Below, piece by piece: positions 1-46,968 of a stretch of 48,520 bases of DNA (positions within the stretch are counted from its first letter, which is position 1; every line of letters begins with the position of its first letter). The stretch lies in the IMG/VR virus record IMGVR_UViG_2711768004_000012; one strand, given 5' to 3'. The DNA comes from a virus (taxonomy: Duplodnaviria > Heunggongvirae > Uroviricota > Caudoviricetes). A model generated the notes under the pieces. That model searched no databases. It had not been told where the DNA came from and saw only the letters and a program-made list of their open reading frames with translations. The translations under genes and the position numbers were made by a program.

Positions 1-212
1 CACAACATCCGAGGACAGCATCGTCCGCTGGCCCACAGAAGTCCGGAAAGTCATGGAAGGTCGTTGTTGGGAGGAGGTACAAATTCTCTCATGCAAAAAA
101 TACGTAAAATCGATAATAGCTGGAAATAATTCAATACATGCACTCTCGAAAGTGCATCAGCCAACCGCAGAACGTTATTGCATACAACGTTTCTGCGGCA
201 TAATCCCAATGA

Positions 213-3908: not shown

Positions 3909-4491
3909 NNNNNNNNNNNNNNNNNNNNNNNNNNNNNNNNNNNNNNNNNNNNNNNNNNNNNNNNNNNNNNNNNNNNNNNNNNNNNNNNNNNNNNNNNNNN
4001 NNNNNNNNNNNNNNNNNNNNNNNNNNNNNNNNNNNNNNNNNNNNNNNNNNNNNNNNNNNNNNNNNNNNNNNNNNNNNNNNNNNNNNNNNNNNNNNNNNNN
4101 NNNNNNNNNNNNNNNNNNNNNNNNNNNNNNNNNNNNNNNNNNNNNNNNNNNNNNNNNNNNNNNNNNNNNNNNNNNNNNNNNNNNNNNNNNNNNNNNNNNN
4201 NNNNNNNNNNNNNNNNNNNNNNNNNNNNNNNNNNNNNNNNNNNNNNNNNNNNNNNNNNNNNNNNNNNNNNNNNNNNNNNNNNNNNNNNNNNNNNNNNNNN
4301 NNNNNNNNNNNNNNNNNNNNNNNNNNNNNNNNNNNNNNNNNNNNNNNNNNNNNNNNNNNNNNNNNNNNNNNNNNNNNNNNNNNNNNNNNNNNNNNNNNNN
4401 NNNNNNNNNNNNNNNNNNNNNNNNNNNNNNNNNNNNNNNNNNNNNNNNNNNNNNNNNNNNNNNNNNNNNNNNNNNNNNNNNNNNNNNNNNN
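3909..4491. other. Run of N (583 nt) covering the J 3' end and lom 5' end
   Basis: Literal n characters. Confidence 1.
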
Positions 4492-7400
4492 TTTTGGTCA
4501 CAATCACCGTACAGTCGGTGATATTGCCTGCCCCCTGATTGCCTTTCTGGAAAATCTTAAACTCCAGAGTGACGCTACCACCACCACTAGGCATATCAAT
4601 AACTGCACTGTAACTACCGGGAATGGCCCCTTTAGTTTCTCTGGATGCGATTAATACGCCGTTTTTGCGAACTTCAAAACCATAACCCGTGTATCGCGTG
4701 CCTCCTGGGTTATTTCCGCTCCCCGGATCGTCATACGCTATACCGTTAAAAATAATGGGCGGAATAATAATCTGGCGGTCAAAGTTATGATCATCGCTGA
4801 TGGTGACTGTAACCGTACCGTCTGGTGTTTCCGTGTTACCCCACGTACCGACTTTTTTCGGGAAGGCTTTTGATACAGCTTTAACGAAATCCCCTCTGAC
4901 CTGGGTCGCCTCCAGCATGCCCTTAATCGTACAGTTCTGGTTAATCGTGACATTGTTGAGCGTTCCTGAGTTCGCATTCACACTACCACTGATATCCGCA
5001 TTTTTAGCGGTCAGCTTTCCGTCTGATGTCAGGGAAAATACCGGAGGACTGCCACCGCTGGTAATGGCGGGGGCTGTCAGGCGCTTCAGGAACACGTCGT
5101 TCATGAATATCTGGTTGCCCTGCGCCACAAACATCGGCGTTTCATTCCCGTTTGCCGGGTCAATAAACGCGATACGATTGGCGGCAACCAGAAACTGGCT
5201 CAGCTTGCCTTCCTCCGTGTCCTCCATGCTGAGGCCAATACCCGCGACATAATGTTTGCCGTCTTTGGTCTGCTCAATTTTGACGCCCCACATCGCATTC
5301 CATTTATCGTTAGCGTCCTTCCACTCTTTCGAAAACTCATCCAGTCTGCTGGCGTTATCCTCCGTCAGATCAACTTTTTCCAGCAGCTCTTTACCGAGAT
5401 GGGATTCGGTTATCTTGCCTTTGAAAAAATCCAGGTAACCTTCCGCATCATCGCTCGCCCGACCGACGGCCTCCACGAATGCCGATTTGCCAACGGTGTT
5501 CACACTGCGGATATAAAAGTAATAATCATGGCCCGGTTTGATATTGATACTGGCGGCTATCCAGTACAGCCCCGCGCCAAGGTAGCGGGCTGTGGTTTCA
5601 ACCTGCCTGATATCGGTAATCCGCGTTTCCGAGAACCAGAACTCAAACTGTACCGTCGGATCATAAACCGCAAGATGCGGCGTGGCAGTTATCTGAAAAT
5701 AGCCCGGCGTCAGCTCAATCCGCGACGGTGCTACCGGTGCGGCAATCCTGAACGATACCGACGCCGGATCGCCCTGCTGTCCCCAGGCATTTACCGCCCG
5801 GACTGTCAGCGTGTACCGTCCCAGCGCCAGTTGCGTGAAGCGGTATGTGGTTTCCGTCGTCCGGGCCGTGCTGACCAGCCGCTCACTGCCGTCATCCGCT
5901 GCCACGGTCAGGCGAAGCATAAAGCTCACCCCCTTCACCACCTTCGGCGTGTCCCAGCGCGCCAGCACCTGATATTCCCCGCTGTCTGCGGTGACTTCGG
6001 CAGTCAGGTGCTGCACCGCTGGCGGCGTGACACCATTCACCGTGCCGCTCTGGTCGCCGTCAAAGTGCGCCCCGTTATCCACGATGGCTTCTTTTTCCGG
6101 TACATGCTGCACGGCAGTGATGGCATACGTGCCGTCATCGTTCTCACGGATACTCACACAGCGGAACAGGCGCTGGCGCAACGTCGGCAGCTTCAGCCCC
6201 CACACGCTGTATTCAGCAACGCCGTCAGGAACACGGCTCACTTTCACCTTCACGCCGTCGGTGACGGACTGAACCTCCACGCTGACCGGATTGCCACTTC
6301 CGTCAACCAGGCTTATCAGCATGGTACCGGAGGATGGCAGCGTGATTTCACGGTCGAGCGTCAGCGTCCGGGTCTGGCTGTTTACCGCCAGCACGCGCCC
6401 GCCGATGCTGATACCCGCATAGTCATCATCACAGATTTCAATGACATCGCCCGGCACATGGCGAAGCCCTTCTGCGCCCACGCTGAAGTCCACGGTCTGC
6501 GTTTCCAGCAGTTCTGTTTTAATCAGCCACAGCCCGGCGCGGTGTGCCTGCCCCCGGCTGGTACAGCCAAAAGCATCCATCTTCGTGACGTTACGACCGT
6601 AACGGGCAATGGCCTGCGTATCCTCCACAAGCTCTGTCGCCGTCTCCCAGCCGTTATCCGGGTCAATCCAGTTCACCTCAACGGCATTATGGCGGTCNNN
6701 NNNNNNNNNNNNNNNNNNNNNNNNNNNNNNNNNNNNNNNNNNNNNNNNNNNNNNNNNNNNNNNNNNNNNNNNNNNNNNNNNNNNNNNNNNNNNNNNNNNN
6801 NNNNNNNNNNNNNNNNNNNNNNNNNNNNNNNNNNNNNNNNNNNNNNNNNNNNNNNNNNNNNNNNNNNNNNNNNNNNNNNNNNNNNNNNNNNNNNNNNNNN
6901 NNNNNNNNNNNNNNNNNNNNNNNNNNNNNNNNNNNNNNNNNNNNNNNNNNNNNNNNNNNNNNNNNNNNNNNNNNNNNNNNNNNNNNNNNNNNNNNNNNNN
7001 NNNNNNNNNNNNNNNNNNNNNNNNNNNNNNNNNNNNNNNNNNNNNNNNNNNNNNNNNNNNNNNNNNNNNNNNNACACCAGGCCATGTTGTTGCTGTATGC
7101 TGGTTTTAACGTTCCGTCCCAGATACCGCTGTATTGTCGCGTCTGCGGGTTATAGTTCGACGGCACCTGCAGAATGCGCCCGCGAAGATGATAATTACGA
7201 CTCACCTGCTGGCTGCCGAACTGCTCCGAGTCCACCTGTACGCCGACCAGTGCAGTGTTCGGGTAGCACTGTTTCACATCGATGATTTCGGTGTATGACG
7301 ACCAGAGCGTTTTGTTCTGCAGCTGGTCTGTGGTGCTGTCCGGTGTCATCCTGCGCATCCGGATACTGAACGGGCGCGGAGGCAGGTTATCCACCACCAC

Positions 7401-8590: not shown

Positions 8591-8678
8591 NNNNNNNNNN
8601 NNNNNNNNNNNNNNNNNNNNNNNNNNNNNNNNNNNNNNNNNNNNNNNNNNNNNNNNNNNNNNNNNNNNNNNNNNNNNN
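8591..8678. other. Run of N (88 nt) at the K/I junction
   Basis: Literal n characters. Confidence 1.
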
Positions 8679-26345: not shown

Positions 26346-27821
26346 TTAGGAGCGCCAAAAAAAACCTGAAAACAATATAATAACAGGATAAATTTCAAGG
26401 CGACCAAGAATCATAGCTATGCACATTAAATATTTTGCAATGTCATTAAGCACTCCGAATGACGATGCAGTAGCCCCAAAACCTAATCCCATATTATTAA
26501 TACATGCAGCCACTGTTGCAAATGATGTAAGAAAATCATATCCCATACCATTTAACACCAGTATAAAAAACACCGTGAAGAGAGTATAAAGAAAAAAGAA
26601 ACTCCATACAGACCTCATTACACGATCTGTAACTATCTTCCCTCCTACATTTACACTCAACAACGCTCTGGGATGAGAAAGCTGATTTATCTCGTGTTTG
26701 CTTTGTTTGAAAAGTATAAGAAATCGAAGTGACTTAATTCCACCACAGGTTGAACCTATACATCCCCCAAAGAAACTTGACAACAGCAAAAACACTATCG
26801 TGTGCGTGGGCCAGTTTGCATAATCCTGCGTAGCTAAACCATTATCAGTGAGCATGGAGCTGGCAAGAAAAAACGAATGAATAAAACTTCCATGCAAGTC
26901 ATACATACCTATATGCCAGACCTGGAAAGAGGTAACAATGATCACCCCTAAGGCTATTAACAGAAAGAAACGAAGTTCAATATCTCTGATTAAAGGTTTT
27001 ATCGTTTTTCTGCTAATAACAATATACCAAAGAGTGAAGTTGAAAGCCGATAGCAGGGAAAAAGAACCAGCCACCAGCTCAACCAAATAGTTATTAAAAT
27101 ATCCGATACTCTCGCTATGAGTTGAGAAACCACCAAGCGAAACTGTGGAAATCCCGTGACAAATAGCATCAAACAAAGGCATTCCTGCAAGTCTATAACA
27201 GACAATACAAGCAATACCTAATAAAGAATAAGTTATCCACAGTGTCCGTGACGTATCGGCCAGGCGGGGAGTGAGTTTGTCATCCTTAAATGGCCCCGGC
27301 ATTTCTGACTGATAAAGCTTTGCACCACCAATACCCAATAATGGCAATACTGCAACCGCCAGAACAATAACTCCTAAACCACCTATAAAATTTAACTGTG
27401 ACCGATAGTACAAATATGCCCGAGGTAATGAACTAACATCATCAATTACAGTTGCTCCTGTTGTTGTTATTCCAGAAACCCCTTCAAACAGAGCATCAAT
27501 GAACGTTAAATTAAGTTCTGAGTCAATCCATAAAGGGAATGCACTAATAACAGAAAACAAAATCCAAAACATTACAATTATAATAAACCCATCACGGGTA
27601 CGTAATTGAATGCCAGATTTCTTAGTTGTATACCACGCTCCGCCACCAATGCAAAAAAATATAACGAAAGTTATAAAGAAAACGAACAGGCTTTTTTCTT
27701 TATAAAACAATGCTACAACCATTGGTGGCAACATTGAAAGACTATAGAGCCAAACCAGGAACCCACACATATGAGTAACAACTCTTACATGAGATGTATT
27801 CATATCTAAATATTCTTTCAA
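26346..27821 (-). CDS. trkG: TrkH/TrkG-family K+ uptake membrane protein (moron); possible start at MNTSHVRVV (27803)
   Basis: 491 aa polytopic membrane protein matching my recollection of Rac TrkG (MNTSHVRVVTHMCGFLVWLYSL...); markedly AT-rich compared with flanking phage genes. Confidence 0.8.
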   Translation of the reverse strand: MKEYLDMNTSHVRVVTHMCGFLVWLYSLSMLPPMVVALFYKEKSLFVFFITFVIFFCIGGGAWYTTKKSGIQLRTRDGFIIIVMFWILFSVISAFPLWIDSELNLTFIDALFEGVSGITTTGATVIDDVSSLPRAYLYYRSQLNFIGGLGVIVLAVAVLPLLGIGGAKLYQSEMPGPFKDDKLTPRLADTSRTLWITYSLLGIACIVCYRLAGMPLFDAICHGISTVSLGGFSTHSESIGYFNNYLVELVAGSFSLLSAFNFTLWYIVISRKTIKPLIRDIELRFFLLIALGVIIVTSFQVWHIGMYDLHGSFIHSFFLASSMLTDNGLATQDYANWPTHTIVFLLLSSFFGGCIGSTCGGIKSLRFLILFKQSKHEINQLSHPRALLSVNVGGKIVTDRVMRSVWSFFFLYTLFTVFFILVLNGMGYDFLTSFATVAACINNMGLGFGATASSFGVLNDIAKYLMCIAMILGRLEIYPVIILFSGFFWRS

Positions 27822-27940: not shown

Positions 27941-28262
27941 TTACTTTAAACACTGCTCGGTTATGTATTGCTGAGCACCTTCAAGTTGGGCCTGCATCAT
28001 TACCAGTCGTTCCCGGAGGGTGAAATAATCCCGTTCAGCGGTGTCTGCCAGTCGGGGGGAGGCTGCATTATCCACGCCGGAGGCGGTGGTGGCTTCACGC
28101 ACTGACTGACAGACTGCTTTGATGTGCAACCGACGACGACCAGCGGCAACATCATCACGCAGAGCATCATTTTCAGCTTTCGCATCAGCTAACTCCTTCG
28201 TGTATTTTGCATCGAGCGCAGCAACATCACGCTGACGCATCTGCATGTCAGTAATTGCCGCG
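27941..28262 (-). CDS. Rz i-spanin (5' end in N run)
   Basis: C-terminal ...AALDAKYTKELADAKAENDALRDDVAAGRRRLHIK..., typical Rz coiled-coil; contains embedded Rz1 in the +1 frame. Confidence 0.8.
28000..28185 (-). CDS. Rz1 o-spanin lipoprotein (embedded in Rz)
   Basis: 61 aa MRKLKMMLCVMMLPLVVVGC TSKQ... with lipobox VVGC and a Pro-rich mature region (PPPPPAWIMQPPPDW), fully nested in Rz in another frame. Confidence 0.8.
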   Translation of the reverse strand: MRKLKMMLCVMMLPLVVVGCTSKQSVSQCVKPPPPPAWIMQPPPDWQTPLNGIISPSGNDW

Positions 28263-28512
28263 NNNNNNNNNNNNNNNNNNNNNNNNNNNNNNNNNNNNNN
28301 NNNNNNNNNNNNNNNNNNNNNNNNNNNNNNNNNNNNNNNNNNNNNNNNNNNNNNNNNNNNNNNNNNNNNNNNNNNNNNNNNNNNNNNNNNNNNNNNNNNN
28401 NNNNNNNNNNNNNNNNNNNNNNNNNNNNNNNNNNNNNNNNNNNNNNNNNNNNNNNNNNNNNNNNNNNNNNNNNNNNNNNNNNNNNNNNNNNNNNNNNNNN
28501 NNNNNNNNNNNN
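28263..28512. other. Run of N (250 nt) covering the R 3' end and Rz 5' end
   Basis: Literal n characters. Confidence 1.
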
Positions 28513-28898
28513 TTGATATCGCCCTGGTTTATTTTGCGAAGAAGCGTCGATGTTCTGAAATTGCCAGCACCCACGTTGTAAACGAATGAGTAAAGAGCGC
28601 CGCGCGTTGTTTCCGGTATATCGACTTTGATGTACGGGTTAATTTGTCTGGCGACAGTGGCAAGGTCTTTATTCAAGAGTGTTTTGCATTCTGCTTTGGT
28701 ATACGTTTTACCGAGCATGATGTCTTTTCCTGTATGCCCGTGACATACAGTCCATACACCAACAATATCTTTGTATGGTATGTAGCTGACACCTTCCAGA
28801 CCATCGTTACCACTTGGGCCAGTGATTAACACTGATGCTATAGCAATTGCTCCGCCACCAATAGCAGCAGCAACGACTTTTCGTAATGATGGAGGCAT
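28513..28898 (-). CDS. SAR-endolysin (phage 21 R-type lysozyme), 3' end in N run
   Basis: [44 protein letters not shown]...: N-terminal Gly/Ala-rich signal-anchor-release domain followed by lysozyme-like region; ATGA overlap with holin. Confidence 0.8.
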
Positions 28899-29113
28899 TA
28901 TTCACCTCTCGCAGCCTTGCGCTTATCTTCTTTAATCTTGAAATAAAGGTTTGTCAGGTACGTCAGCAGGCCAAATACCAGACTACCCAGCACACCGATT
29001 GCAGCCCACTGTGACGGAGTTACTCTATCGAGCAACTGTAAAAACCAGTAGCCAGCACTGCCTGCGGAGGTGCCGTAGGCAATGCCTGTTGAAATTTTGT
29101 CCATGGATTTCAT
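28898..29113 (-). CDS. Pinholin (phage 21 S-type) with dual-start motif MKSMDK
   Basis: [71 protein letters not shown]: two TMDs, charged C-terminus, Met-Lys-x-Met dual start typical of holin/antiholin pairs. Confidence 0.8.
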
Positions 29114-29364: not shown

Positions 29365-29760
29365 CTAACCTCGCATGTCAAAGCCAGATTTCTGAAAATC
29401 TCTGTAGACTTCCGGATTGTTGAAGGCCGGAAATTTGGCTTTATGAGCTGCGGACTTTATCGCTTCGCAATAGGCTTTATCACCGTTACTGGTAGATATT
29501 TTTAACGCCGTGCCATCCTGAGAGAATTCCATATGCAACCTGCATTTTTTCCCTTTCCAGTTATGCGGCTCATCAAGTTTGGCATTAATTGCAGCTCTGA
29601 TTCCCCGCGCTTGCGCCCCCCATTCATCCTGATCATCCCAGCGTCCTGAACTGCAACTACCTGTAGCAGTAGTTTTGTGGCAATCTGAAGGGTGTAAAGG
29701 TGTGCATCCCGCAACAAAACCGACCCAAAAAGTCAACATAACGATTTTCTTTAATCCCAC
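29365..29760 (-). CDS. Lipoprotein with TolA C-terminal domain (domain III)-like region
   Basis: 131 aa; signal peptide plus lipobox (FVAGC); mature part ...KKCRLHMEFSQDGTALKISTSNGDKAYCEAIKSAAHKAKFPAFNNPEVYRDFQ... resembles TolA-III (two Cys, PxxxxVY motif). Confidence 0.7.
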   Translation of the reverse strand: MGLKKIVMLTFWVGFVAGCTPLHPSDCHKTTATGSCSSGRWDDQDEWGAQARGIRAAINAKLDEPHNWKGKKCRLHMEFSQDGTALKISTSNGDKAYCEAIKSAAHKAKFPAFNNPEVYRDFQKSGFDMRG

Positions 29761-29910
29761 TTCTTGCTCCTCAATCCATTAAAATCTCAGCAATAGTAGT
29801 TGTTACGTCCGCCACTGGCTCAGAGCTGACTATCCGCTAAATTTAGCTCAGTGCCGTAGCTGTGTCAGAACAAACCTAAGCCGAAACCGTTTATTACAAA
29901 ACAATAAATA

Positions 29911-30339
29911 TCAGGGTTTAAAATCCAGCACCCCATTTTGAAATACTTTATATACTTCCGGCGAAGGGGGGGCAGGTATATCAGCATTCTTTATCGCATT
30001 CATCGCTTCACGACATAAATCGAGGTCTCCACTTTCTCTTTTAACCTCCAGTAGAAGGCCATTCGGGGCCATATGCATTCTCAGTGTACACTCTTTTCCT
30101 GAATACTTACTCGCATCCCCGAACTGTTTTTCGATGGCGCTCTTGATTTGATGGGCATACAGACGGATATCCTCACTAACATCAGAAGTACGTTCAGATG
30201 AACTCACATACTGTGTCTCTATTGCTTTATCGGAGTAATATGATGTACGGTCATGATAATTTGTCGATACAGCATCAGTGCACCCGATAATAATCCCACT
30301 AATAATCAACGTAAGAATTGATGCGCTACGAAAACCCAT
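29911..30339 (-). CDS. Lipoprotein with TolA domain III-like C-terminus (closer TolA mimic)
   Basis: 142 aa; signal peptide plus lipobox (IIGC); C-terminus YAHQIKSAIEKQFGDASKYSGKECTLRMHMAPNGLLLEVKRESGDLDLCREAMNAIKNADIPAPPSPEVYKVFQNGVLDFKP closely parallels the E. coli TolA C-terminus as I recall it (YAGQIKSAIESKFYDASSYAGKTCTLRIKLAPDGMLLDIKPEGGDPALCQAA...PSQAVYEVFKNAPLDFKP). Confidence 0.75.
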   Translation of the reverse strand: MGFRSASILTLIISGIIIGCTDAVSTNYHDRTSYYSDKAIETQYVSSSERTSDVSEDIRLYAHQIKSAIEKQFGDASKYSGKECTLRMHMAPNGLLLEVKRESGDLDLCREAMNAIKNADIPAPPSPEVYKVFQNGVLDFKP

Positions 30340-30936
30340 TTTTCCTCACATATGTCATATAGTAAAGGATTATATATACCGTTGTTTTGGACGCTCAAAC
30401 AGCGAATCAGATCAAATAAAACGCACATTTGTTAACATTTACACAAAGTCTGCGTGGGATATTCTGAAAGAATATCCATAATGTGGAGAGAATCTATTGA
30501 AGTGCATGGTGCCGGGTGCCTCCCGGTGAACAAAATGTTCGTGATACCTGTCGGCGACAGAAAAGGTTAATGGTATCACCCCACCGCACAGGGGGATTCA
30601 CCATGCAGGAGTTTTCTTAGCAAACTCACTGCGCGCCCGGCAACTCCCAACCACATAAAATGCGGAGTTTGTGGCATTTATGCATATAACTCGCAGGAAT
30701 TATCTTAAAAAACTGATGTCGATCCGGATTAAAAAGAAGCAGGTCATCATCAGATGACTGGAAAAAAGGAAAACAAAAAATACTCATCATACAGTTTTGA
30801 TTGCAGGGATGAGCCTGCTATGCACAATATGCAGAATATAAGCAAGATAAAAATATGCAGGCATATTATTTCGGATCTTGTTATTAACACAACCTTTTTA
30901 ATAATCATTTGGCATACAATAAACCAGCCCAAAAAG

Positions 30937-30956
30937 AACCGCCTAAACAGGCGGTT
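30937..30956 (-). terminator. Second candidate intrinsic terminator in the Q-to-lysis leader (minus-strand sense)
   Basis: Minus strand: aaccgcc tgttta ggcggtt followed by CTTTTT. Confidence 0.4.
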
Positions 30957-31276
30957 GGTCAATACAAAGGATGCTTCGTCTTTATTATAGTAATCTGAGG
31001 CGTCGGGTGTCTTGTATCAGACAACATATTGTCCCGCTAAACAGCGAATTACAAACCACCCTGCAATGATCTCTCATCTCATTTTATATGAGTTGACGAC
31101 ATCAGGATAACGCATCATCAGCCCCTGCCAAGAAATATCAAAACTCCCGCCAGCAATGTGTTATCACAATATTGTAAAAAAAACACAGCACCGAAACTAT
31201 AACTGGTCTCTGTTATAATTTGGAGCAGAAAGACCAGTTGCCCAACTAGCAGCATTCTCCCCTGCTTTCCTGACGT

Positions 31277-31303
31277 AAAAAAACCGCATTAAGCGGTTTT
31301 TTT
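31277..31303 (-). terminator. Intrinsic terminator downstream of Q (tR'-like; A-run / hairpin / T-run, potentially bidirectional)
   Basis: gtaaaaaaaccgcattaagcggtttttttacg: 7-bp stem aaaccgc / gcggttt flanked by A7 and T7; about 80 nt downstream of the Q stop, as expected for the late-promoter terminator that Q-modified RNAP reads through. Confidence 0.7.
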
Positions 31304-31383: not shown

Positions 31384-31926
31384 TCAAGCCATTTTCTCAG
31401 CAAATGATTCACGCATGGGAATATATAGGGCATACTCAGCAACAGCTAACCAATTAGCAATCCGTTTTTCGCATGTGCTAAAACACCACTCTGGGTGTGC
31501 ATCATTTAGCAATTCAGCCATTTTGCGCTTAGTCATCCCCCGCCCTTCATAGCGTTGCCGGAGAATGCAAATCAATCCTGGATGCTCTGCCAGCACCTCA
31601 CTTATGACTCGATCAATACATAACGCCTCTGCATCAGTACAATGCGCCAGCCAGCTCTTTTGCTTGCCGTTGATCATCTCTCGCAAAAACGCTTCCAGCT
31701 CAGCTTTCTCTATTCCCGCTTTTTTCATTCTGCGCAGGGCTTCATTAATGGCTGTTTTCGTCAGTTTTTTGGATGCCAACAACTGATTGAACATATTCCC
31801 TGACCTGCCACCGCCAATATACGACCAGCGCCCCCACATACGTAGTTTTCCCTGAATCCAGACACTTTCCAGCGTGGTGAGGCGAAGGTGTTCTCCGCTT
31901 TTTCCTGTATTCGTTGGGTAAATCAT
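31384..31926 (-). CDS. Late-gene antiterminator Q-like protein
   Basis: 180 aa ORF at the end of the nin region, immediately upstream of an intrinsic terminator and the lysis cassette; sequence is not lambda Q-like, so the call rests on position and size. Confidence 0.55.
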   Translation of the reverse strand: MIYPTNTGKSGEHLRLTTLESVWIQGKLRMWGRWSYIGGGRSGNMFNQLLASKKLTKTAINEALRRMKKAGIEKAELEAFLREMINGKQKSWLAHCTDAEALCIDRVISEVLAEHPGLICILRQRYEGRGMTKRKMAELLNDAHPEWCFSTCEKRIANWLAVAEYALYIPMRESFAEKMA

Positions 31927-33179: not shown

Positions 33180-33587
33180 AGTAGCCACATGATAAGTTGC
33201 TGGAATCATATTTCCCACTCAAGTCATTAACATTTGATAAGATATATCTAAAAGGACGCCTTTACATTATTTATGCGTATATAATTTATTTATATACACA
33301 GTAAAGGTATCCTGGGAAAATATTTATCGTTAAAAAATACATCATAAATAATTAAGCTGAAATTTCAGAACACAACTAATACACACAATAAGGTTCAGTA
33401 ACAGTAATCTATGTGGACTACATCGAGATTTTTTGATTAAACTTTAATAACTTATTCCTAACACACAGAATGCATAAACTAAAAGTAAAACAAATAGTTA
33501 TACGAAAAACAACCATATTTATTCTATCTTCTCCTCTAATCAACATATCAATTATGTGTTTCATAACAGCTTGACATAACCCTCCAA

Positions 33588-33610
33588 AAGATGCATTTTT
33601 AATGCATGTT
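33588..33610 (+). promoter_or_regulatory. NsrR-type operator-like inverted repeat upstream of the yeaR-like gene
   Basis: aagATGCATttttaATGCATgtt: first half AAGATGCATTT is identical to the NsrR half-site consensus as I recall it; ATGCAT-based 11-1-11 palindrome; a perfect TTGACA lies at 33571-33576. Confidence 0.5.
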
Positions 33611-33625
33611 TTGGAGGAGGTGGTT

Positions 33626-33964
33626 ATGACACACAAGAGAATTCCTAAAGATTGGGTAATCAAACGCTCAACTCCGTTCTTCACAAAAGAGAACGTACCT
33701 TCAGCGTTATTAACACATCATAATACAGCAGCAGGTGTTTTTGGGCAGTTGTGCGTAATGGAAGGCACTGTAACATATTATGGTTTTACTGATGAGAATG
33801 CTACTGAACCGGAGATAAAAGTAGTCATTAATGCTGGCGCTTTTGCAACAAGCCCACCACAATACTGGCACCGTGTTGAACTAAGCGATGATGCTCAGTT
33901 TAATATTAACTTTTGGGTCGCTCCAGACTTTTCGGGCGAAAAAGTCTATAGCACCAAAAAATAG
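33626..33964 (+). CDS. YeaR-like DUF1971 protein (moron)
   Basis: 112 aa MTHKRIPKDWVIKRSTPFFTKENVPSALLTHHNTAAGVFGQLCVMEGTVTYYGF...FNINFWVAP parallels E. coli YeaR (…RSTPFWNK…MHGAVKYLGY…YFNIDFFVAP); strong SD GGAGGAGGTGG upstream. Confidence 0.7.
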   Translation: MTHKRIPKDWVIKRSTPFFTKENVPSALLTHHNTAAGVFGQLCVMEGTVTYYGFTDENATEPEIKVVINAGAFATSPPQYWHRVELSDDAQFNINFWVAPDFSGEKVYSTKK

Positions 33965-33993
33965 ATGATCATATTAAAAATGCTTTAACAGTC

Positions 33994-34031
33994 AGACCCG
34001 GCAGGGCTATCCCCGACGGGTCTCATTTTTG
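33994..34031 (+). terminator. Candidate terminator after the yeaR-like gene
   Basis: agacccg...cgggtct inverted repeat followed by cattttt; the loop is long (16 nt), so strength is uncertain. Confidence 0.4.
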
Positions 34032-34584
34032 TAAATATATTGGTTCTACATTGACAGGAGACTTCAACCATAAGAAGTAATCTGAATACTTGAGCAATAA
34101 ATTTACTTAAGATTAATGAGCGCACCTTGCCGGACAAAGATAAACCAAGGTAACACCTTTTTTCTAGCCAGTATGTAATCAATCAGAAAGCCGCTCCATA
34201 AGAACAACAGCAAGACAATAAATTGCCATTACAGCCGCAATAGCCAGCGCACATTTGAGAACCAGCACGACAACCCCCTGTATTAGACGCACACCAGTCC
34301 TGATAAATATGAGGCTGTCTCGTCAGTGATTCAATACAACTATTGGGTATAGTTTCTGTGATTTTATTCTGTAGAAATGGAACACAACAACCAGTCACCA
34401 CCAGCACTTCCTTAAATGCTCTAAGTCAGAAACAAGCCAACATTTTAGTCCGCTTTGAGCGATCTGCAGACATTGCTAGCAGCCTTCTGTGTGAATTCTC
34501 AGGGAGCAGGTCGGCATAGCATCACGTTGAGGCTCTTACCCTACTTGTTCACACCAACCCTAACTCCACAGACTGATTCATAAA

Positions 34585-35586
34585 TTAGTAATCTGCGTGT
34601 TTCGCACTTTTCAGAAATGCTTTCATATTTTCATTAGGTCGCTCAATTTCGAAGTTACTTCCATATAACTCTTGTAATTTTGGCCATAACTTACTTAATA
34701 ACCCTCTCCTGCGATAAAATGGATGTATCCAAACGGTAGATAGGTACGGAGAATTTGCATTTGAATTGTTTATTGTGACCAGCCCAACTAAACATTGTCG
34801 ATAACCACTATTATCCATTGATTGTATTTCTTCGACGAATGGATACGCGATTACATCAGTCCAACCATGATCGGTTGTATCCCATTGCATTCCGTCATGA
34901 CATTCCTTCGACTGATAGCGGCGTAAAGCTACACACGCGAGCTTTTGCCAATCTGGAGAATTAATTGTGATCTCTTCATCGTATGACGCGCCTATTGGAG
35001 CGGGTATTGGTCTGATTAATCCAGCATGGCATTCATCATAGAACTTCATGTTTCCCTCAGAAACGTTGTGTACGTTGGGTTGCTCCATGTGTGCGCCATT
35101 CAAAAATAGCTCTGATAGTAGTGTATCTACACTGTAATCTTTATTGATTATTGTCGGCTTAGAGTTTTTCTTATTAAGGCCGCGAGTAACGATTTTTTGA
35201 TCAATGTTAACAACATGGAATAATCCGTCGGGGAGGCTAGCGAACCACGATGGGGCATCGGACCAGAATAGCATGCCTTTTGTACTTCTTAAGAGTTTAA
35301 TTAAGTTAATACAAGCTTCTTCACTAGTCTTGCCGTTGATGCGAAGTATGTTAGGACTAAAGTAATATTCATCCATATCAGGGAATGCAGCTTCGCAAAA
35401 CTCCTGTACATAATTTAGCACCTGGATTCTACAGAGATCATCATAGCTGGTAATAACTAAGGGGGTATCTTCATTACTATTATGATTATCAATAATGCAA
35501 TCTATAGCGAGACTTACTGCTTTGCGTATCACTTCAGTTGAATCTAACGACTCTAAAAATTTTGTCTTTCGTGTGCGAATATCCAT
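34585..35586 (-). CDS. Hypothetical protein with GNAT-like acetyltransferase C-terminal domain
   Basis: 333 aa; C-terminus ...CLVGLVTINNSNANSPYLSTVWIHPFYRRRGLLSKLWPKL... fits GNAT motif A (beta strand then R-x-x-G-x-hydrophobic); AT-rich; 15 nt downstream of the preceding gene (operon). Confidence 0.5.
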   Translation of the reverse strand: MDIRTRKTKFLESLDSTEVIRKAVSLAIDCIIDNHNSNEDTPLVITSYDDLCRIQVLNYVQEFCEAAFPDMDEYYFSPNILRINGKTSEEACINLIKLLRSTKGMLFWSDAPSWFASLPDGLFHVVNIDQKIVTRGLNKKNSKPTIINKDYSVDTLLSELFLNGAHMEQPNVHNVSEGNMKFYDECHAGLIRPIPAPIGASYDEEITINSPDWQKLACVALRRYQSKECHDGMQWDTTDHGWTDVIAYPFVEEIQSMDNSGYRQCLVGLVTINNSNANSPYLSTVWIHPFYRRRGLLSKLWPKLQELYGSNFEIERPNENMKAFLKSAKHADY

Positions 35587-35601
35587 GTATGACCTGCGCT
35601 A

Positions 35602-36562
35602 TTAAAATTCATGAATGAACGGTTTGTCATCTGGTTGCAAAATGGTGGTTTTATTCGTTGCTACATTTAAACTGTTGTAGAGCATAATTGCCAGGTTCGA
35701 TGCATTTTCAATCAGCGTTTCAAGATCCTGGTCTGTAATCACTACGAGGTTCCCTTCTTTATCCTTTCCACCACGATGCACTAAGTGATTTCGATTGAGG
35801 GTTGCCAATTCAATAGCTTCTATCGGACAGTCTTTTTGTACTTTTATATCGAATGTAGCTTCATAGCGGTCGATTACCTTTTTAGTGCTATGCCAGCTTG
35901 CACTGATCAAGTGTTCCTTGATTGACCTGATTAGCTCTCCCCTAATTTTCTCGATGGGTTCACCCTTGAAAGGCAACGCAGCAATATCTTTGCTTACTTT
36001 AAATTCAGTCTTACCTTTTTCTATACAATTGGCTATGTAGACATCATCTTTCTCTATAGAATTAATGAATAGCTCAACATAAAGCGTTTCCAAAGCTGTA
36101 ATAACATTCGTGTAGAGCAAACTAAGCAAGTGGTTTTTTTGCTGTTGTTCAGTTTTATCTTTTGCAAGTTTTTTTATTTTATCGATATTATCAATGAATT
36201 TTAAATACGGATTACCGGAAGACGTTACAGCGTCGTAGATATCATCATCGTACCAATCATCTATATTATTTGAGTTTCCAGACCAGTCAAAACATTGTGT
36301 TTGTAATTCATCTACTAATTCCTCAATATACTCAGATTTAACATATTGACCGAAGATGGATTGTAGTTCTTCGCTCGCATCATACGGCCCGCCATATATG
36401 TAAGCATAGCCACCTTCTCTACTTTCATACGGACAAGCATTTGCCGGATCTTCAAAGTTTTCAAAGAACCAGTTTTTCATTACTTCGAGTTGATCTTTTT
36501 TGCTTATGTATTTTAAAGATTTTAGTGGAACTTTCTTTCCATTAACCTCGAAAACAATTTTC
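35602..36562 (-). CDS. Hypothetical protein with HEPN-like R-N-x3-H motif (probable GTG start; ORF track extends to 36693)
   Basis: About 320 aa; C-terminal region ...ELATLNRNHLVHRGG... contains R-N-H-L-V-H (Rx4H); SD AAGGGAG before GTG AAA ATT; AT-rich; first gene of a two-gene operon. Confidence 0.45.
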
Positions 36563-36762
36563 ACGATGTAACGCTCCCTTGTATCAATTGCGCAACTATT
36601 ATACCACAGCGAAATACAGGGCATAACCTGCCTCCTTAAACTAACATACCATGAGCCAGCAATGTCCGCTATTGGCACAAAGCGGACAACCACGCTAGCT
36701 CTCCCCTGTGCCAGAAAAATGTCAATTTACATATGAACTAATGCTCTTTGATCTAGTAACGT

Positions 36763-37179
36763 CTATAAATACCGAAGATTTCCTTGATAAAATGCCAGTA
36801 CACGTTTCATAACTTCACTCTTCCGGCACTCGCGACAGATTATGTTCTGACGCCTGTCATAGCGGCGTATTTCTCCGTCTGGTAATGACCAGATAAGGTC
36901 AGGATCAACCACAACCGTTTTTTTCACCTTTGCCCTGGATAGTTTTTTGCGGGCGTTTTTCCAATCCTTACGAGCCTGTTCAGACGGGAATAACCCATAG
37001 CCAGAGTTGTATACATCGCCACTGGCAACCAACTCTCTGGCAAGAATGCTCATCAGATATCTTGTCGCACCTGTCTTGGCCTCCAGTTGCCTTAACGTCT
37101 CGCGCCCACTCTGGCGTACCAACTCAACAACCTGCTCCTTAATTTTTTCACGCTCTTCCTGTGTAAAAACTTTTGCCAT
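36763..37179 (-). CDS. Hypothetical protein with HTH-like region and CxxC (CRECRK)
   Basis: ORF starting MAKVFTQEEREKIKEQVVELVRQSGRETLRQLEAKTGATRY...; backbone GC content; lies between the replication module and the AT-rich cassette. Confidence 0.45.
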   Translation of the reverse strand: MAKVFTQEEREKIKEQVVELVRQSGRETLRQLEAKTGATRYLMSILARELVASGDVYNSGYGLFPSEQARKDWKNARKKLSRAKVKKTVVVDPDLIWSLPDGEIRRYDRRQNIICRECRKSEVMKRVLAFYQGNLRYL

Positions 37180-37194
37180 AAGCGCCTCCGGCAA

Positions 37195-37956
37195 TCACTT
37201 TTCCGACACAATACGACTGGAGGAATCGACAATCTGTCGGACAATATCCCGGTGCTTGTTCAGCTCCCGCAGCGCGGCGCAGACTCGCTCCCACTTCTGG
37301 ACATGATTTTTCGCCCGACGCAGTTCGCGGTTTGCCATATGCAGCGATGGTAAAACTAGGTCATCCGCTTGCGTTTCAGTAAACGATGGCAGCGACTGCA
37401 CAATGTCCGCCACAGTTTCTGTTTTAATATCTTCCTGTGTTGCCGCTTCCTGTACTGGTAACGCAACACCGGCTGGCTGAGGAAAGGCTTTACCATCAGT
37501 TTCCGCTACCGATGCAGCTTTCGGCTCTGCTGGTAAATTATCGCCCGGCATGCAGTAACGAAATTTACTGTTCTGGTTTACGCGAATCAGGCGTCCTTTG
37601 CTGATTGCCATTGCCAGCGTTGAAGCAACTTTGCGGGATGTTGTACCGAACAGCGTAGCCAGTTCATCCGCCGTTTGTGGTCCGCGTTGTTCAATCGTCG
37701 CGGTTAAATCGCACTCTGAGATTTTCACTACAGTTGCCGTGGTGGTTTCTTCCGGCAGTTCTGCCTGCATTGGCTGTTCCTGCTGAACGTTGTTATCAGC
37801 CACACGCCAGGTGTACGCGCTTTTATCAACGAAACCAGCTTTTTTCAGTTCCCATAGTTCGTTCAGCACTTCTTCACGACTGATATCAAGTCGCGCAGCA
37901 AGTTCTATGGATGTGGCTTTTCCCATTGCTTTCAGTGCGTCAAAAACAGTCTCCAT
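37195..37956 (-). CDS. YdaW-like replication-module protein (winged-helix N-terminus)
   Basis: [43 protein letters not shown]...; downstream of the DnaC-like gene as in Rac. Confidence 0.5.
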
Positions 37957-37978
37957 AAAAATTTCCTCCCGGTAAAAA

Positions 37979-38725
37979 TTACTTCTCAATTCCTGGCTGG
38001 ACGACATTCGGACGCCAGCTCTCCCAGTTAAAATTCACCCATCGCCCGCCGTTCATGGTCATGCGATCCATAATCCGCTCGCCGAGCAATGTTTTCATGG
38101 CCTCATAGTTCAGGTTTGTCAGCATCCCCACGCTGCGCATCGACGCTGTCCGGCGATCAACAATCTGGTGCAGCACCACCTGCTCGTTTTTCGTCTCGCG
38201 CTGAATGCCAATTTCATCAAGAACCAGCAGATCCACTTCGCATAGTTCCCGCAAAAATTTTTCGCCTGACTGCCCATCGTCATAGCTGGCGTGCAGGGCA
38301 CTCATAACATCAGCCACGGTAACCACAATCACTGTCTGACCGTCTTTCAGCAGGCGATTCCCGATAGCTGCCGCTAAGTGGTTCTTCCCGGTACCAGGTT
38401 TTCCGCTGAACGCAAAATTTGTACACCCGGTCATCAGTTCATCAGCGATGGATTTCGCCTGACTCAACGCGTATCGCTGCGCTTCGTTCTGCACCTGGTA
38501 ATTCGAAAACGAGCATTTGCGGTGCAATGGCTGGATGCCAGAGCGATTCAGAATTTTTTCCACCCGCAACTGACGATTCTGACGGTTGATCTCCTCACAA
38601 CGTTTCTGGCCTTCGGAAAGTTGCCACTCGCGCCACTCCGCTACCGTCTTGAATGGCGCGGTTACATGTGACGGGGCCAGTCTGCGGATACGTTCAAGAA
38701 CGTCGCCTGTCGCAATATTTTTCAT
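37979..38725 (-). CDS. DnaC/IstB-like helicase loader ATPase (YdaV-like)
   Basis: 248 aa with Walker [18 protein letters not shown] and Walker B LLVLDEIG. Confidence 0.8.
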
Positions 38726-38731
38726 GGTCAG

Positions 38732-39589
38732 TTACCCCCTGAAGCCTGGCGGGATCGCACTATCCGGTAACGAGACGGTGTTAACCTGTCGGAGTAACGT
38801 CTCAGGTCGAACACCTTTCGGCGCGAACAAGCCCTGGTATTCATTGGCGATGCTGTGTCGAATCACCTGCTCAGGTGAAAAACCCTGCTGGCGGAATTTT
38901 TCCAGCTCCCGTATCGCCCCGTTAGCGCCCTGCTCCGTTCGAATCGGTTTTCGCAATGCCTGGCGAAATTCAACCCACTCACGCCAAAGCGAGACAGAAA
39001 TCCAGTTCGGCAAAGCAATATCCAGAGGGTCAAACTTTTTGACACCTCGATTCCCCCGGGGGGGATTTAGGGGGGGATCTGTTTTTAGATCTTTATCTGT
39101 ATCTTTATTAGTTGCCTTTGTGTTGACATCATGTTCAAACACCACTTCAACATCTGTTTGAACACCTGTTAAATTTCTCTCTTGTTTTGTTTGAACATCT
39201 GCTTCCTTTCTGCTTCTTCTGGCCTGAACAGATGCTTTTCCTGCGGCTGATTTTTTGGTTAATTTTTCCCTGACTGATGCCAGATCTTCCTCAATCCGAA
39301 GATGCACCCATTCCTCGCCGTTATCGCAAAAAAACTCCTGCAAGGATGGTTCAACATCAGCCCATCGCTCGTTAGTCAGACGGGCAATTTTTGCCAGCCT
39401 GTTTTTAGGTATTGGCTTTCCTGTTTGCCAGTAATTGAACATCAGCAACAAATACGCACCATGCTCCTCTGCTGACAAATGCATGGTGTCAGCCAGGTAA
39501 TCAGCTATGTACAGTTGCATGTATGGTAATGCGGCCATAATTGCCCCGTATGATGCTGCCCGGTGGCTTAGAATAAGCACAAACAGCAT
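38732..39589 (-). CDS. Replication initiation protein (YdaU/DUF1376-like; start may be at MAALPYMQLY, 39538)
   Basis: ORF upstream of the DnaC-like gene; N-terminus MAALPYMQLYIADYLADTMHLSAEEHGAYLLLM is typical of DUF1376 phage replication proteins as I recall them. Confidence 0.55.
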   Translation of the reverse strand: MLFVLILSHRAASYGAIMAALPYMQLYIADYLADTMHLSAEEHGAYLLLMFNYWQTGKPIPKNRLAKIARLTNERWADVEPSLQEFFCDNGEEWVHLRIEEDLASVREKLTKKSAAGKASVQARRSRKEADVQTKQERNLTGVQTDVEVVFEHDVNTKATNKDTDKDLKTDPPLNPPRGNRGVKKFDPLDIALPNWISVSLWREWVEFRQALRKPIRTEQGANGAIRELEKFRQQGFSPEQVIRHSIANEYQGLFAPKGVRPETLLRQVNTVSLPDSAIPPGFRG

Positions 39590-39601
39590 GGAAACTTTTG
39601 C

Positions 39602-40024
39602 TTAATGAACAATGACAGAATCGTCGGAAGACCCGCCGCCGCTGAAATGCGCTTTCCGGTAAACGGCTTGGACTGCATCATCATGCGCATCAATTGCCGT
39701 ACTTAACGCTTCCTGCGCCGCCAGTAATGCACGGCGTTCCAGGGTATCGAAGATGCAGAGTCGGTGACGCAGCTCGCGCGGAAGGATTGCCAGAATTGCT
39801 GGGATCAGCTTCTGAATTTTTTCTCTTTGCGTTTTCGTTTCACCTTTCAACCAACGGTGATAGATATTCTGCTGATTATTCCAGTCCTTGCCTGGTACCA
39901 GGGGCAATTCGCCGCCCCCCTGGCGCAGATATTCTTCAGTAATGGCATTGGCTACCCATGCCTGCCCTTTTTCGGCTGCCAGGGCTAACAACACTGACTC
40001 GATGTGCTCATGCTTGATTTTCAT
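39602..40024 (-). CDS. YdaT-like protein (second gene of the cro-side operon)
   Basis: 140 aa ORF immediately downstream of the Cro-like gene with 4-nt overlap; Rac-type ydaS-ydaT arrangement. Confidence 0.55.
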   Translation of the reverse strand: MKIKHEHIESVLLALAAEKGQAWVANAITEEYLRQGGGELPLVPGKDWNNQQNIYHRWLKGETKTQREKIQKLIPAILAILPRELRHRLCIFDTLERRALLAAQEALSTAIDAHDDAVQAVYRKAHFSGGGSSDDSVIVH

Positions 40025-46779: not shown

Positions 46780-46968
46780 ATGTATAAAATTACCGCCACT
46801 ATTGAAAAGGAAGGTGGCACTCCTACTAACTGGACAAGATATTCAAAATCTAAACTAACGAAATCAGAATGCGAAAAAATGCTCTCAGGTAAAAAAGAAG
46901 CAGGCGTTTCCAGAGAGCAGAAAGTAAAACTGATAAATTTTAATTGCGAGAAACTTCAGTCCTCGTGA
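46780..46968 (+). CDS. ydaC: YdaC-like small protein (start may be at 46768, MEVFMYK)
   Basis: MYKITATIEKEGGTPTNWTRYSKSKLTKSECEKMLSGKKEAGVSREQKVKLINFNCEKLQSS; between ralR and xis as in Rac. Confidence 0.55.
   Translation: MYKITATIEKEGGTPTNWTRYSKSKLTKSECEKMLSGKKEAGVSREQKVKLINFNCEKLQSS

Follow-up and report, generated by a model that had tools for sequence, protein, structure and literature searches.

The window analysed here, the whole stretch of 48,520 nucleotides (nt) of the IMG/VR virus record IMGVR_UViG_2711768004_000012, is a full-length Rac-type (lambdoid) prophage of E. coli in which recE, kilR, sieB, ydaT, trkG, ynaK, and ydaY are present. Just ahead of its lysis cassette lie two adjacent genes on the minus strand, whose products of 142 and 131 amino acids (aa) are here called TolL1 and TolL2, labels coined in this analysis. 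An earlier note on this DNA had claimed that each encodes a signal peptide with a lipobox, followed by a domain resembling the C-terminal domain III of TolA (TolA-III). Open reading frames (ORFs), a lipobox pattern search, and the Pfam TolA C-terminal family PF06519 all confirm this description.

Both N-termini match a lipobox rule of the PROSITE PS51257 type (Lys/Arg in the n-region, a hydrophobic stretch, and [AGS]C): the sequences are MGFRSASILTLIISGIIIGC followed by TDA in TolL1 and MGLKKIVMLTFWVGFVAGC followed by TPL in TolL2, with the Cys at positions 20 and 19, respectively, and Lys/Arg in both n-regions. The +2 residue is Thr in either protein, not Asp, and the lipobox is retained in homologues. 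Asp at +2 acts as an inner-membrane retention signal, and its absence leads to sorting to the outer membrane; going by these signals, TolL1 and TolL2 are probably outer-membrane lipoproteins. A good Shine-Dalgarno sequence precedes each gene (GAGGAAAAATG for TolL1, GAGGAGCAAGAAGTG for TolL2).

The profile search that the note had proposed as a check assigns both proteins to PF06519 (TolL1: E=2.4e-23, 82.6 bits; TolL2: E=1.3e-14, 54.6 bits), the cutoff being the curated gathering score of 25 bits. Residues 55-142 of TolL1 align without a gap to residues 334-421 of E. coli TolA (E ~5e-28, phmmer against the PDB), with 52/88 positions identical (59%), and its description as a nearly motif-for-motif match to the TolA C-terminus is borne out. 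TolL2 is more diverged, sharing 27/88 residues with TolA (31%) and 25/88 with TolL1, but, again as claimed, it retains the P-x-V-Y core and both Cys of the TolA-III disulfide. This Cys pair (C363-C388 in E. coli TolA) is invariant in TolL1, TolL2, and the family alignment. In AlphaFold2 (AF2) models, the predicted local distance difference test score (pLDDT) exceeds 90 over residues 54-142 of TolL1 and over the domain of TolL2; it is below 50 over residues 1-51 of TolL1, and the signal peptide and tether of TolL2 are disordered. Structure superposition, the second proposed check, places the TolL2 model on E. coli TolAIII (3qdp) with a root-mean-square deviation of 1.1 Å and a template-modelling score of 0.92 (Foldseek), the next matches being further TolAIII entries, including complexes with colicin A, If1 g3p, and M13 g3p. 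Judged by AF2, Foldseek, and the alignment, both proteins have the TolA-III fold, that is, an alpha/beta domain with a three-stranded sheet and the disulfide.

TolL1 and TolL2 belong to the TolA C-terminal family, yet they are not TolA. The architecture of TolA proper, an N-terminal transmembrane anchor to TolQR, a long helical domain II, and domain III, is found in neither. With the NCBIfam models of full-length TolA (NF007065/TIGR02794), the aligned part covers model positions 293-386 of 387 only, the last ~95, and NF007065 gives scores of 107.8 (TolL1) and 53.7 (TolL2) as compared to a cutoff of 213. Since both proteins lack the TolQR-coupled anchor and domain II, they can neither couple to TolQR nor stand in for TolA. 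With the full-length architecture absent, names such as 'TolA' and 'tolA pseudogene' in the databases mislead.

The names found in sequence databases ('TolA', 'tolA family protein', 'colicin import membrane protein') are all automatic. In the annotation of NZ_CP033250.1 by the Prokaryotic Genome Annotation Pipeline (PGAP), TolL1 is a 'tolA' pseudogene ('incomplete, missing N-terminus') and TolL2 starts at Met8, whereby the charged KK n-region of its signal peptide is cut off; either call seems to be an artefact that arises when so short a protein is measured against full-length TolA. More generally, short TolA-III lipoproteins are widely named 'cell envelope integrity protein TolA', which is probably a systematic mis-annotation. 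Both TolL proteins are in PHROG 5772, listed as 'unknown function'. PADLOC contained no model matching either of them, BFVD returned no significant structural match, and a Pfam scan detected no similarity to colicin immunity families; nor do they show the hallmark of a colicin immunity protein, a position directly after the cognate toxin whose cytotoxic domain it neutralises. A 'tolA' on small Col-like plasmids has been named in passing (PMC6807383, PMC10269471). A remark on TolA concerning an EDL933 prophage gene (PMC11125564) was ruled out, as that gene is a tail fibre gene.

Selection was assessed by Nei-Gojobori estimates of the ratio of nonsynonymous to synonymous substitution rates (dN/dS) between diverged copies. 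TolL1 and a 66%-identical variant differ with a dN/dS of 0.24 in the domain and 0.36 over the whole gene. For the TolL2 domain, the ratio is 0.09 relative to an IncI-plasmid copy and 0.06 relative to an Enterobacter chromosomal copy. The CHKTTATGSCSSGRWDDQDEW segment of TolL2, which extends from the lipobox to the domain, has a dN/dS of 0.10 relative to the IncI-plasmid copy and is therefore more than a spacer. Both genes are under purifying selection and functional.

Table 1. Features of the late region around TolL1 and TolL2, in the order of minus-strand transcription
Feature	Position	Strand	Details
Q-like late antiterminator	31384-31926	minus	DUF1133, weak Phage_antitermQ match (Pfam); upstream of the TolL pair
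Terminator-like hairpin AAAAAACCGCTTAATGCGGTTTTTTT	~31274-31300	minus	Right after the Q gene; overlapped by weak isrK-like Rfam matches
Promoter-like AAGACA-18-TATAAT	31013-30984	minus	Followed by hairpin AACCGCCTGTTTAGGCGGTT and T-run at 30956-30937
STnc100-like small RNA (sRNA) element	30450-30636	minus	Rfam 86.6 bits (gathering score 47); non-coding DNA between Q and TolL1
Sigma-70-like site TTGAGC-18-TATAAT	30369-30398	minus	10/12 consensus; ~30 nt upstream of the TolL1 start
TolL1	29911-30339	minus	142 aa, ATG start, intact ORF (ORF list)
TolL1, parts (residues)	1-20; ~21-53; 54-142		Signal peptide (lipobox IIGC, +2 Thr); disordered tether; TolA domain III
TolL2	29365-29760	minus	131 aa, GTG start, intact ORF (ORF list)
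TolL2, parts (residues)	1-19; ~44-131		Signal peptide (lipobox VAGC, +2 Thr); TolA domain III; between them, the conserved Cys-containing segment CHKTTATGSCSSGRWDDQDEW
Terminator-like hairpin AGCTCGCTACGGCGAGCT and T-run	29239-29222	minus	~125 nt past the TolL2 stop, ahead of the holin gene
Holin, phage P21 S family	28898-29113	minus	PF04971 E=2e-35; first gene of the lysis cassette, downstream of the TolL pair
Endolysin	28248-28898	minus	After the holin gene, N-run inside; then an Rz/Rz1-like (spanin) pair (ORFs, PGAP names)

The earlier note had placed the pair between a terminator on the Q side and the holin gene, and had given the downstream copy a terminator of its own. Both placements agree with the hairpins found downstream of the Q-like gene and after TolL2, and with the position of the holin gene (Table 1). 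Positions 30937-31013 hold a candidate late promoter/terminator pair, and TTGAGC-18-TATAAT is a candidate moron promoter; in a consensus scan, the total of promoter-like sites in the region was not clearly above that in shuffled sequences, and the promoter evidence at homologues elsewhere is weak. From 30627 to 28897, a block comprising the STnc100-like element, TolL1, TolL2, and the holin gene is shared at 97% with phage mEp460_ev081 (blastn), whose Q gene is unrelated. At its 5′ edge, this block begins with the STnc100-like element, which could belong to the leader of a late transcript or represent a recombination joint. Among the 80 IMG/VR prophage loci that carry identical TolL1, the Q type ahead of the cassette is DUF1133 in 39 and PF03589 in 34, two unrelated types that together make up 73/80. 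Around the 66%-identical TolL1 variant, the gene order is Q - TfpB - AraC - TolL1 - nanS-p (SASA esterase) - DUF1378 - DUF826 - holin; here, DNA similarity is confined to the ORF, and the variant has its own terminators downstream. Features of the locus that would suit a moron are the terminator, a promoter-like site (10/12, by consensus only), two Q backgrounds, the occurrence in mEp460_ev081, and a single-gene variant with other flanks. TolL1 and TolL2 are cargo of the Q-S interval in the late operon, and each was acquired independently.

The note had further equated this site with the slot that carries stx in Stx phages. The position in the Q-S interval and the variant upstream of nanS-p agree with that claim, and equivalence to the stx2 neighbourhood is probable: in Stx2 phages, stx2 is followed by nanS-p, DUF1378, and DUF826. 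The tRNA genes that Stx phages have in the Q-S interval were looked for in the window, and none was found.

As to the rest of the prophage, trkG (26346-27821, minus strand), encoding a potassium transporter, directly follows the lysis cassette as a second cargo gene. The Rac prophage of K-12 keeps trkG but is not known to carry the segment of Q, TolL, holin, and endolysin genes. Positions 33195-40001 match the otherwise near-identical Rac-type prophage of strain ECCHD184 in two short pieces at 88-92% only; strains therefore vary in the cargo that separates the replication genes from the nin/Q region. The antitoxin sRNA RalA (46786-46964, minus; Rfam 225 bits) fits the Rac identity, and a match to IS009 lies at 256-454 on the minus strand (Rfam 221 bits). 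Five runs of N, masked or unknown, occur in the window (2954-3267, 3909-4491, 6698-7073, 8591-8678, and 28263-28512); because the last of them interrupts the endolysin gene, the end of this gene and the start of the spanin gene are unreadable.

How widespread are these genes? The exact 1.3-kb locus is present in 773 of 5426 complete E. coli genomes. DNA and protein searches of 50,697 phage records found TolL genes in mEp460_ev081 only. Plasmids of E. coli and Shigella, ~600 in number, carry homologues 88% identical to TolL2. Where the plasmid belongs to the I complex (IncI1/B/O, IncI-gamma/K), the TolL2 homologue directly follows a nikB-type relaxase gene; the same place is occupied on an IncFIA/FII plasmid (NZ_CP042885.1, 3504-3899), and on a toxB-bearing IncFIA/FIB plasmid (NZ_AP026113.1, 3465-3896) the homologue is found near psiB, psiA, and hok. 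At 78-89% identity, TolL2 homologues extend to Citrobacter, Enterobacter, Klebsiella, Serratia, and Raoultella, and in Enterobacter the TolL2-type gene has a conserved non-mobile chromosomal context. More distant members are carried by ~690 further plasmids, mostly of Klebsiella. A HMMER search of 1.8 billion cluster representatives of public proteins gave 333 matches; among the best 147 of them, 68 are 100-175 aa long, 43 of these 68 having a lipobox and none an Asp at +2 (clusters of short TolA-III lipoproteins were defined at 50% identity). The idea of a phage-specific invention did not survive this survey, which revealed a large family of short TolA-III lipoproteins with a TolL2 subfamily that is chromosomal in Enterobacter.

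Two members of the wider family have suggestive neighbours. On the IncR plasmid NZ_CP141857.1 (4217-5246), a Thioredoxin_2 (thioredoxin-fold) gene stands immediately upstream of the gene for a 144-aa TolA-III lipoprotein, and its product could be a dedicated oxidoreductase for the TolA-III disulfide. NZ_CP031718.1, a ColRNAI plasmid of Klebsiella pneumoniae (10,060 bp), has genes for a bacteriocin, whose translocation domain is of the Tol-dependent cloacin type, and for immunity and lysis. At 1512-2245, the same plasmid has a divergent gene pair for a 123-aa TolA-III lipoprotein ending in NAPLDFRP and a 121-aa TonB C-terminal domain protein, the latter with a cleavable signal peptide and predicted to be secreted. 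A separate E3-type immunity gene follows the toxin gene, the TolA-III gene points away from this operon, and the neighbourhood also includes a ParE/CopG module. The arrangement suggests that the pair may serve as paired decoys for the Tol and Ton import pathways.

What could TolL1 and TolL2 bind? The third beta-strand (beta3; A415-K420) of TolA-III binds g3p-N1, colicin N (ColN), and the TolB N-terminus via beta-strand addition; the TolA mutations D418P and K420P abolish binding and cause a tol phenotype; and g3p is also contacted by helix alpha2 (PMC4339652; PMC7391070). The affinities are ~1 µM for ColN and g3p (up to 12 µM for g3p) and ~40 µM for TolB (PMC4339652; PMC7391070). For colicin A, the binding site is on the opposite edge, at L375-P380, where K368, K379, and K396 make cation-pi contacts (PMC3365938). 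The beta3 strand reads FKNAPLDFKP in TolA, FQNGVLDFKP in TolL1, and FQKSGFDMRG in TolL2, so that D418 and K420 correspond to D/K in TolL1 and D/R in TolL2. In alpha2, 11/16 residues of TolL1 and 4/16 of TolL2 are identical with TolA, and the three colicin A lysines (K/K/K) are H/K/K in TolL1 and E/S/H in TolL2. As beta3, most of alpha2, and two of the three colicin A lysines are kept, TolL1 appears suited to the same ligands as E. coli TolA-III. TolL2 has kept the TolA-III fold and a proline-free edge strand, and its surfaces differ.

The best-supported reading, for which we see the balance as even, is that TolL1 and TolL2 are decoys against Tol-dependent colicins and filamentous phages. After lipidation and Lol sorting to the inner leaflet of the outer membrane, they would display many uncoupled TolA-III domains beneath porins, TolC, and pilus sites, where invaders emerge. 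There, the epitopes of group A colicins and related bacteriocins, as well as the N1 domain of g3p, would be captured through beta-strand addition (~1 µM) by the decoy rather than by energised TolA, and import, it is proposed, would therefore stall. Because TolB binds TolA-III at ~40 µM only, as opposed to ~1 µM for the invaders, moderate expression of a decoy could block the latter without a full tol phenotype. With TolL1 keeping the ligand surfaces of E. coli TolA and TolL2 the fold and edge strand but other surfaces, the ligands covered by the two would thus differ. A lysogen or plasmid host would benefit by becoming tolerant to colicins and by excluding filamentous phages.

There are precedents for such an effect. 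Levengood-Freyermuth et al. reportedly observed, in 1993, that periplasmic TolAIII confers tolerance to colicins E1, E2, E3, and A, though not to colicin D. Export of TolAIII by signal-sequence fusion is reported to release periplasmic protein and to make cells leaky (PMC6195910, citing Levengood-Freyermuth 1993 and Wan & Baneyx 1998). The mirror-image experiment, sequestration of TolA by periplasmic g3p-N1, reportedly made cells resistant to colicin A and lowered phage uptake by 4 logs (PMC10424213). Carriage by I-complex plasmids and, beside a TonB C-terminal domain gene, by a bacteriocin plasmid provides circumstantial support for decoys. I pili are the receptor of phage If1, and the complex of If1 g3p with TolAIII (PDB 2x9a) is among the phmmer PDB matches of TolL1. 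More tentatively, it is possible that copies of TolA-III on mobile elements, in part with a secreted TonB C-terminal domain, constitute a generic decoy defence against Tol/Ton bacteriocins and filamentous phages whose diversification tracks invader epitopes. Its carriers, in this tentative extension, would be lambdoid prophages as well as I-complex, F-type, IncR, and Col plasmids of Enterobacteriaceae.

Several points weigh against TolL1 and TolL2 being decoys. The promoter ahead of TolL1, and with it expression in the lysogen, is predicted from a consensus match. Colicins kill with single-hit kinetics, and given this, a decoy may lower sensitivity rather than abolish it. A TolA-III decoy would also compete for TolB, at a cost in the gut. 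Cells overexpressing TolAIII artificially are leaky and detergent-sensitive (PMC6195910). None of the three colicin A lysines and few of the alpha2 identities survive in TolL2, and Enterobacter has members of its subfamily as ordinary genes of the chromosome, which could point to a housekeeping role in the envelope. Adjacency to lysis genes, or to bacteriocin release genes on the Col plasmid, fits a release function equally well. Finally, no functional study of natural TolA-III lipoproteins was found in the full-text literature, in which subscription journals are thinly covered; the earlier note had likewise been aware of no description as a prophage superinfection-exclusion mechanism. Annotation pipelines already recognise the similarity to TolA.

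The main rival, which we consider unlikely, starts from that release function and casts the proteins as saboteurs of Tol-Pal. Free TolA-III, though improbably so, would titrate the TolB N-terminus (and perhaps CpoB), such that energised TolA would fail to detach TolB from Pal. This would loosen the outer membrane, and the ensuing vesiculation and leakage might, as an equally doubtful consequence, aid the release of phages or bacteriocins or generate decoy vesicles. The location in the late operon, immediately upstream of the holin, endolysin, and spanin genes, is in keeping with this, as is the homologue adjoining the bacteriocin-immunity-lysis operon of the Klebsiella Col plasmid; that gene is, however, divergent from the operon rather than within it, and the phage already has a complete lysis cassette. 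Biotechnology exploits periplasmic TolAIII to leak periplasmic proteins (PMC6195910), and beta3 mutations that block TolA-TolB binding produce the full tol phenotype (PMC4339652). TolL1 has retained the TolB-binding beta3 strand, but the affinity of TolB for TolA-III is low (~40 µM; PMC4339652). In addition, the cassette's own terminator and promoter-like site suggest expression outside the lytic cycle, and leakiness would be costly to bile-exposed gut bacteria, whose conjugative plasmids and, in Enterobacter, chromosomes stably carry such genes.

Also unlikely, and mainly an option for the TolL2 subfamily, is that these lipoproteins of the envelope have a partner that is not among the known ligands of TolA-III. 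Their TolA/TonB-like fold would then be a generic module for beta-strand addition, binding for instance some other protein of the periplasm or outer membrane, and the genes, improbable as we find it, ordinary mobile cargo with no role in colicin import, phage entry, or Tol-Pal. Such a role would suit the breadth of the family (at least 43 clusters of short TolA-III lipoproteins at 50% identity among the top 147 representatives), the conserved non-mobile context of TolL2-type genes in Enterobacter, and the diverged surfaces of TolL2 with its extra Cys-containing segment, whose strong conservation is reflected in the dN/dS of 0.10. Yet TolL1 keeps the ligand-binding strand and helix of TolA nearly unchanged, and an unrelated function does not readily account for the repeated carriage on bacteriocin plasmids, next to a copy of the TonB C-terminal domain. 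Very improbable, lastly, is that the genes are non-functional, decaying fragments of a captured tolA, as the PGAP pseudogene label for TolL1 implies and as NF007065 scores below the equivalog cutoff might be taken to mean: intact frames, de novo lipoprotein signal peptides, good ribosome-binding sites, confident models, an architecture shared across the family (at least 43 lipobox clusters at 50% identity), and dN/dS values well under 1 between diverged copies speak against it, and the dN/dS values and intact signal peptides effectively exclude a pseudogene.

The decoy reading can be set against known systems. With TolA domain III (E. coli TolA 334-421; PDB 1s62, 3qdp, 1tol, 2x9a), TolL1 and TolL2 share family, fold, and disulfide, as well as a conserved beta3 strand, the binding site of TolB, g3p-N1, and colicin N, which is strongly conserved in TolL1. 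Whereas TolA is anchored in the inner membrane by a helix, TolL1 and TolL2 have a predicted lipid anchor, probably in the outer membrane, and nothing that connects them to TolQR or the proton motive force; unlike TolA, their family is encoded on prophages and plasmids. Llp of T5 and Cor of phi80, HK022, and N15 are small phage lipoproteins that shield the carrier cell by binding, and thereby inactivating, the receptor FhuA. They act on an outer-membrane receptor, whereas TolL proteins would imitate a periplasmic co-receptor and bind the invader, and there is no similarity in sequence or fold. The Q-S interval of lambdoid prophages carries other cargo, such as stx in Stx phages and nmpC in DLP12; slot and moron logic are the same as for the TolL genes, but product and presumed role are unrelated. 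Engineered periplasmic TolAIII (pTA3Y; Levengood-Freyermuth 1993; Wan & Baneyx 1998) is likewise a free TolA-III uncoupled from TolQR, albeit artificial, soluble, and overexpressed, whereas TolL proteins are diverged in sequence, tethered, probably lipid-anchored, and presumably made at levels tolerated by the host. Exclusion mediated by g3p targets the same g3p-N1/TolA-III interaction as a TolL decoy would, in mirror image: there, the invader's ligand occupies TolA, while here a copy of TolA would occupy the invader's ligand. None of these nearest functional systems is a natural copy of a periplasmic co-receptor encoded by a mobile element.

On either the decoy or the Tol-Pal reading, two very common genes labelled 'TolA' or 'tolA pseudogene' would need re-annotation. 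If Tol-Pal is what they perturb, mobile elements would bear natural regulators of how stable the outer membrane is and how much it vesiculates. If they are decoys, about 1 in 7 sequenced E. coli genomes would carry a built-in, broad tolerance factor, and many clinically important IncI, IncF, IncR, and Col plasmids a factor against group A colicins and klebicins as well as filamentous phages. This would bear on models of bacteriocin warfare in the gut, on the design of colicin- and klebicin-based therapeutics, and on the use of M13-type phages and phagemids as delivery vehicles for wild strains. A further consequence would be a new principle of defence at the level of entry, namely to copy a periplasmic co-receptor instead of masking a receptor at the surface.

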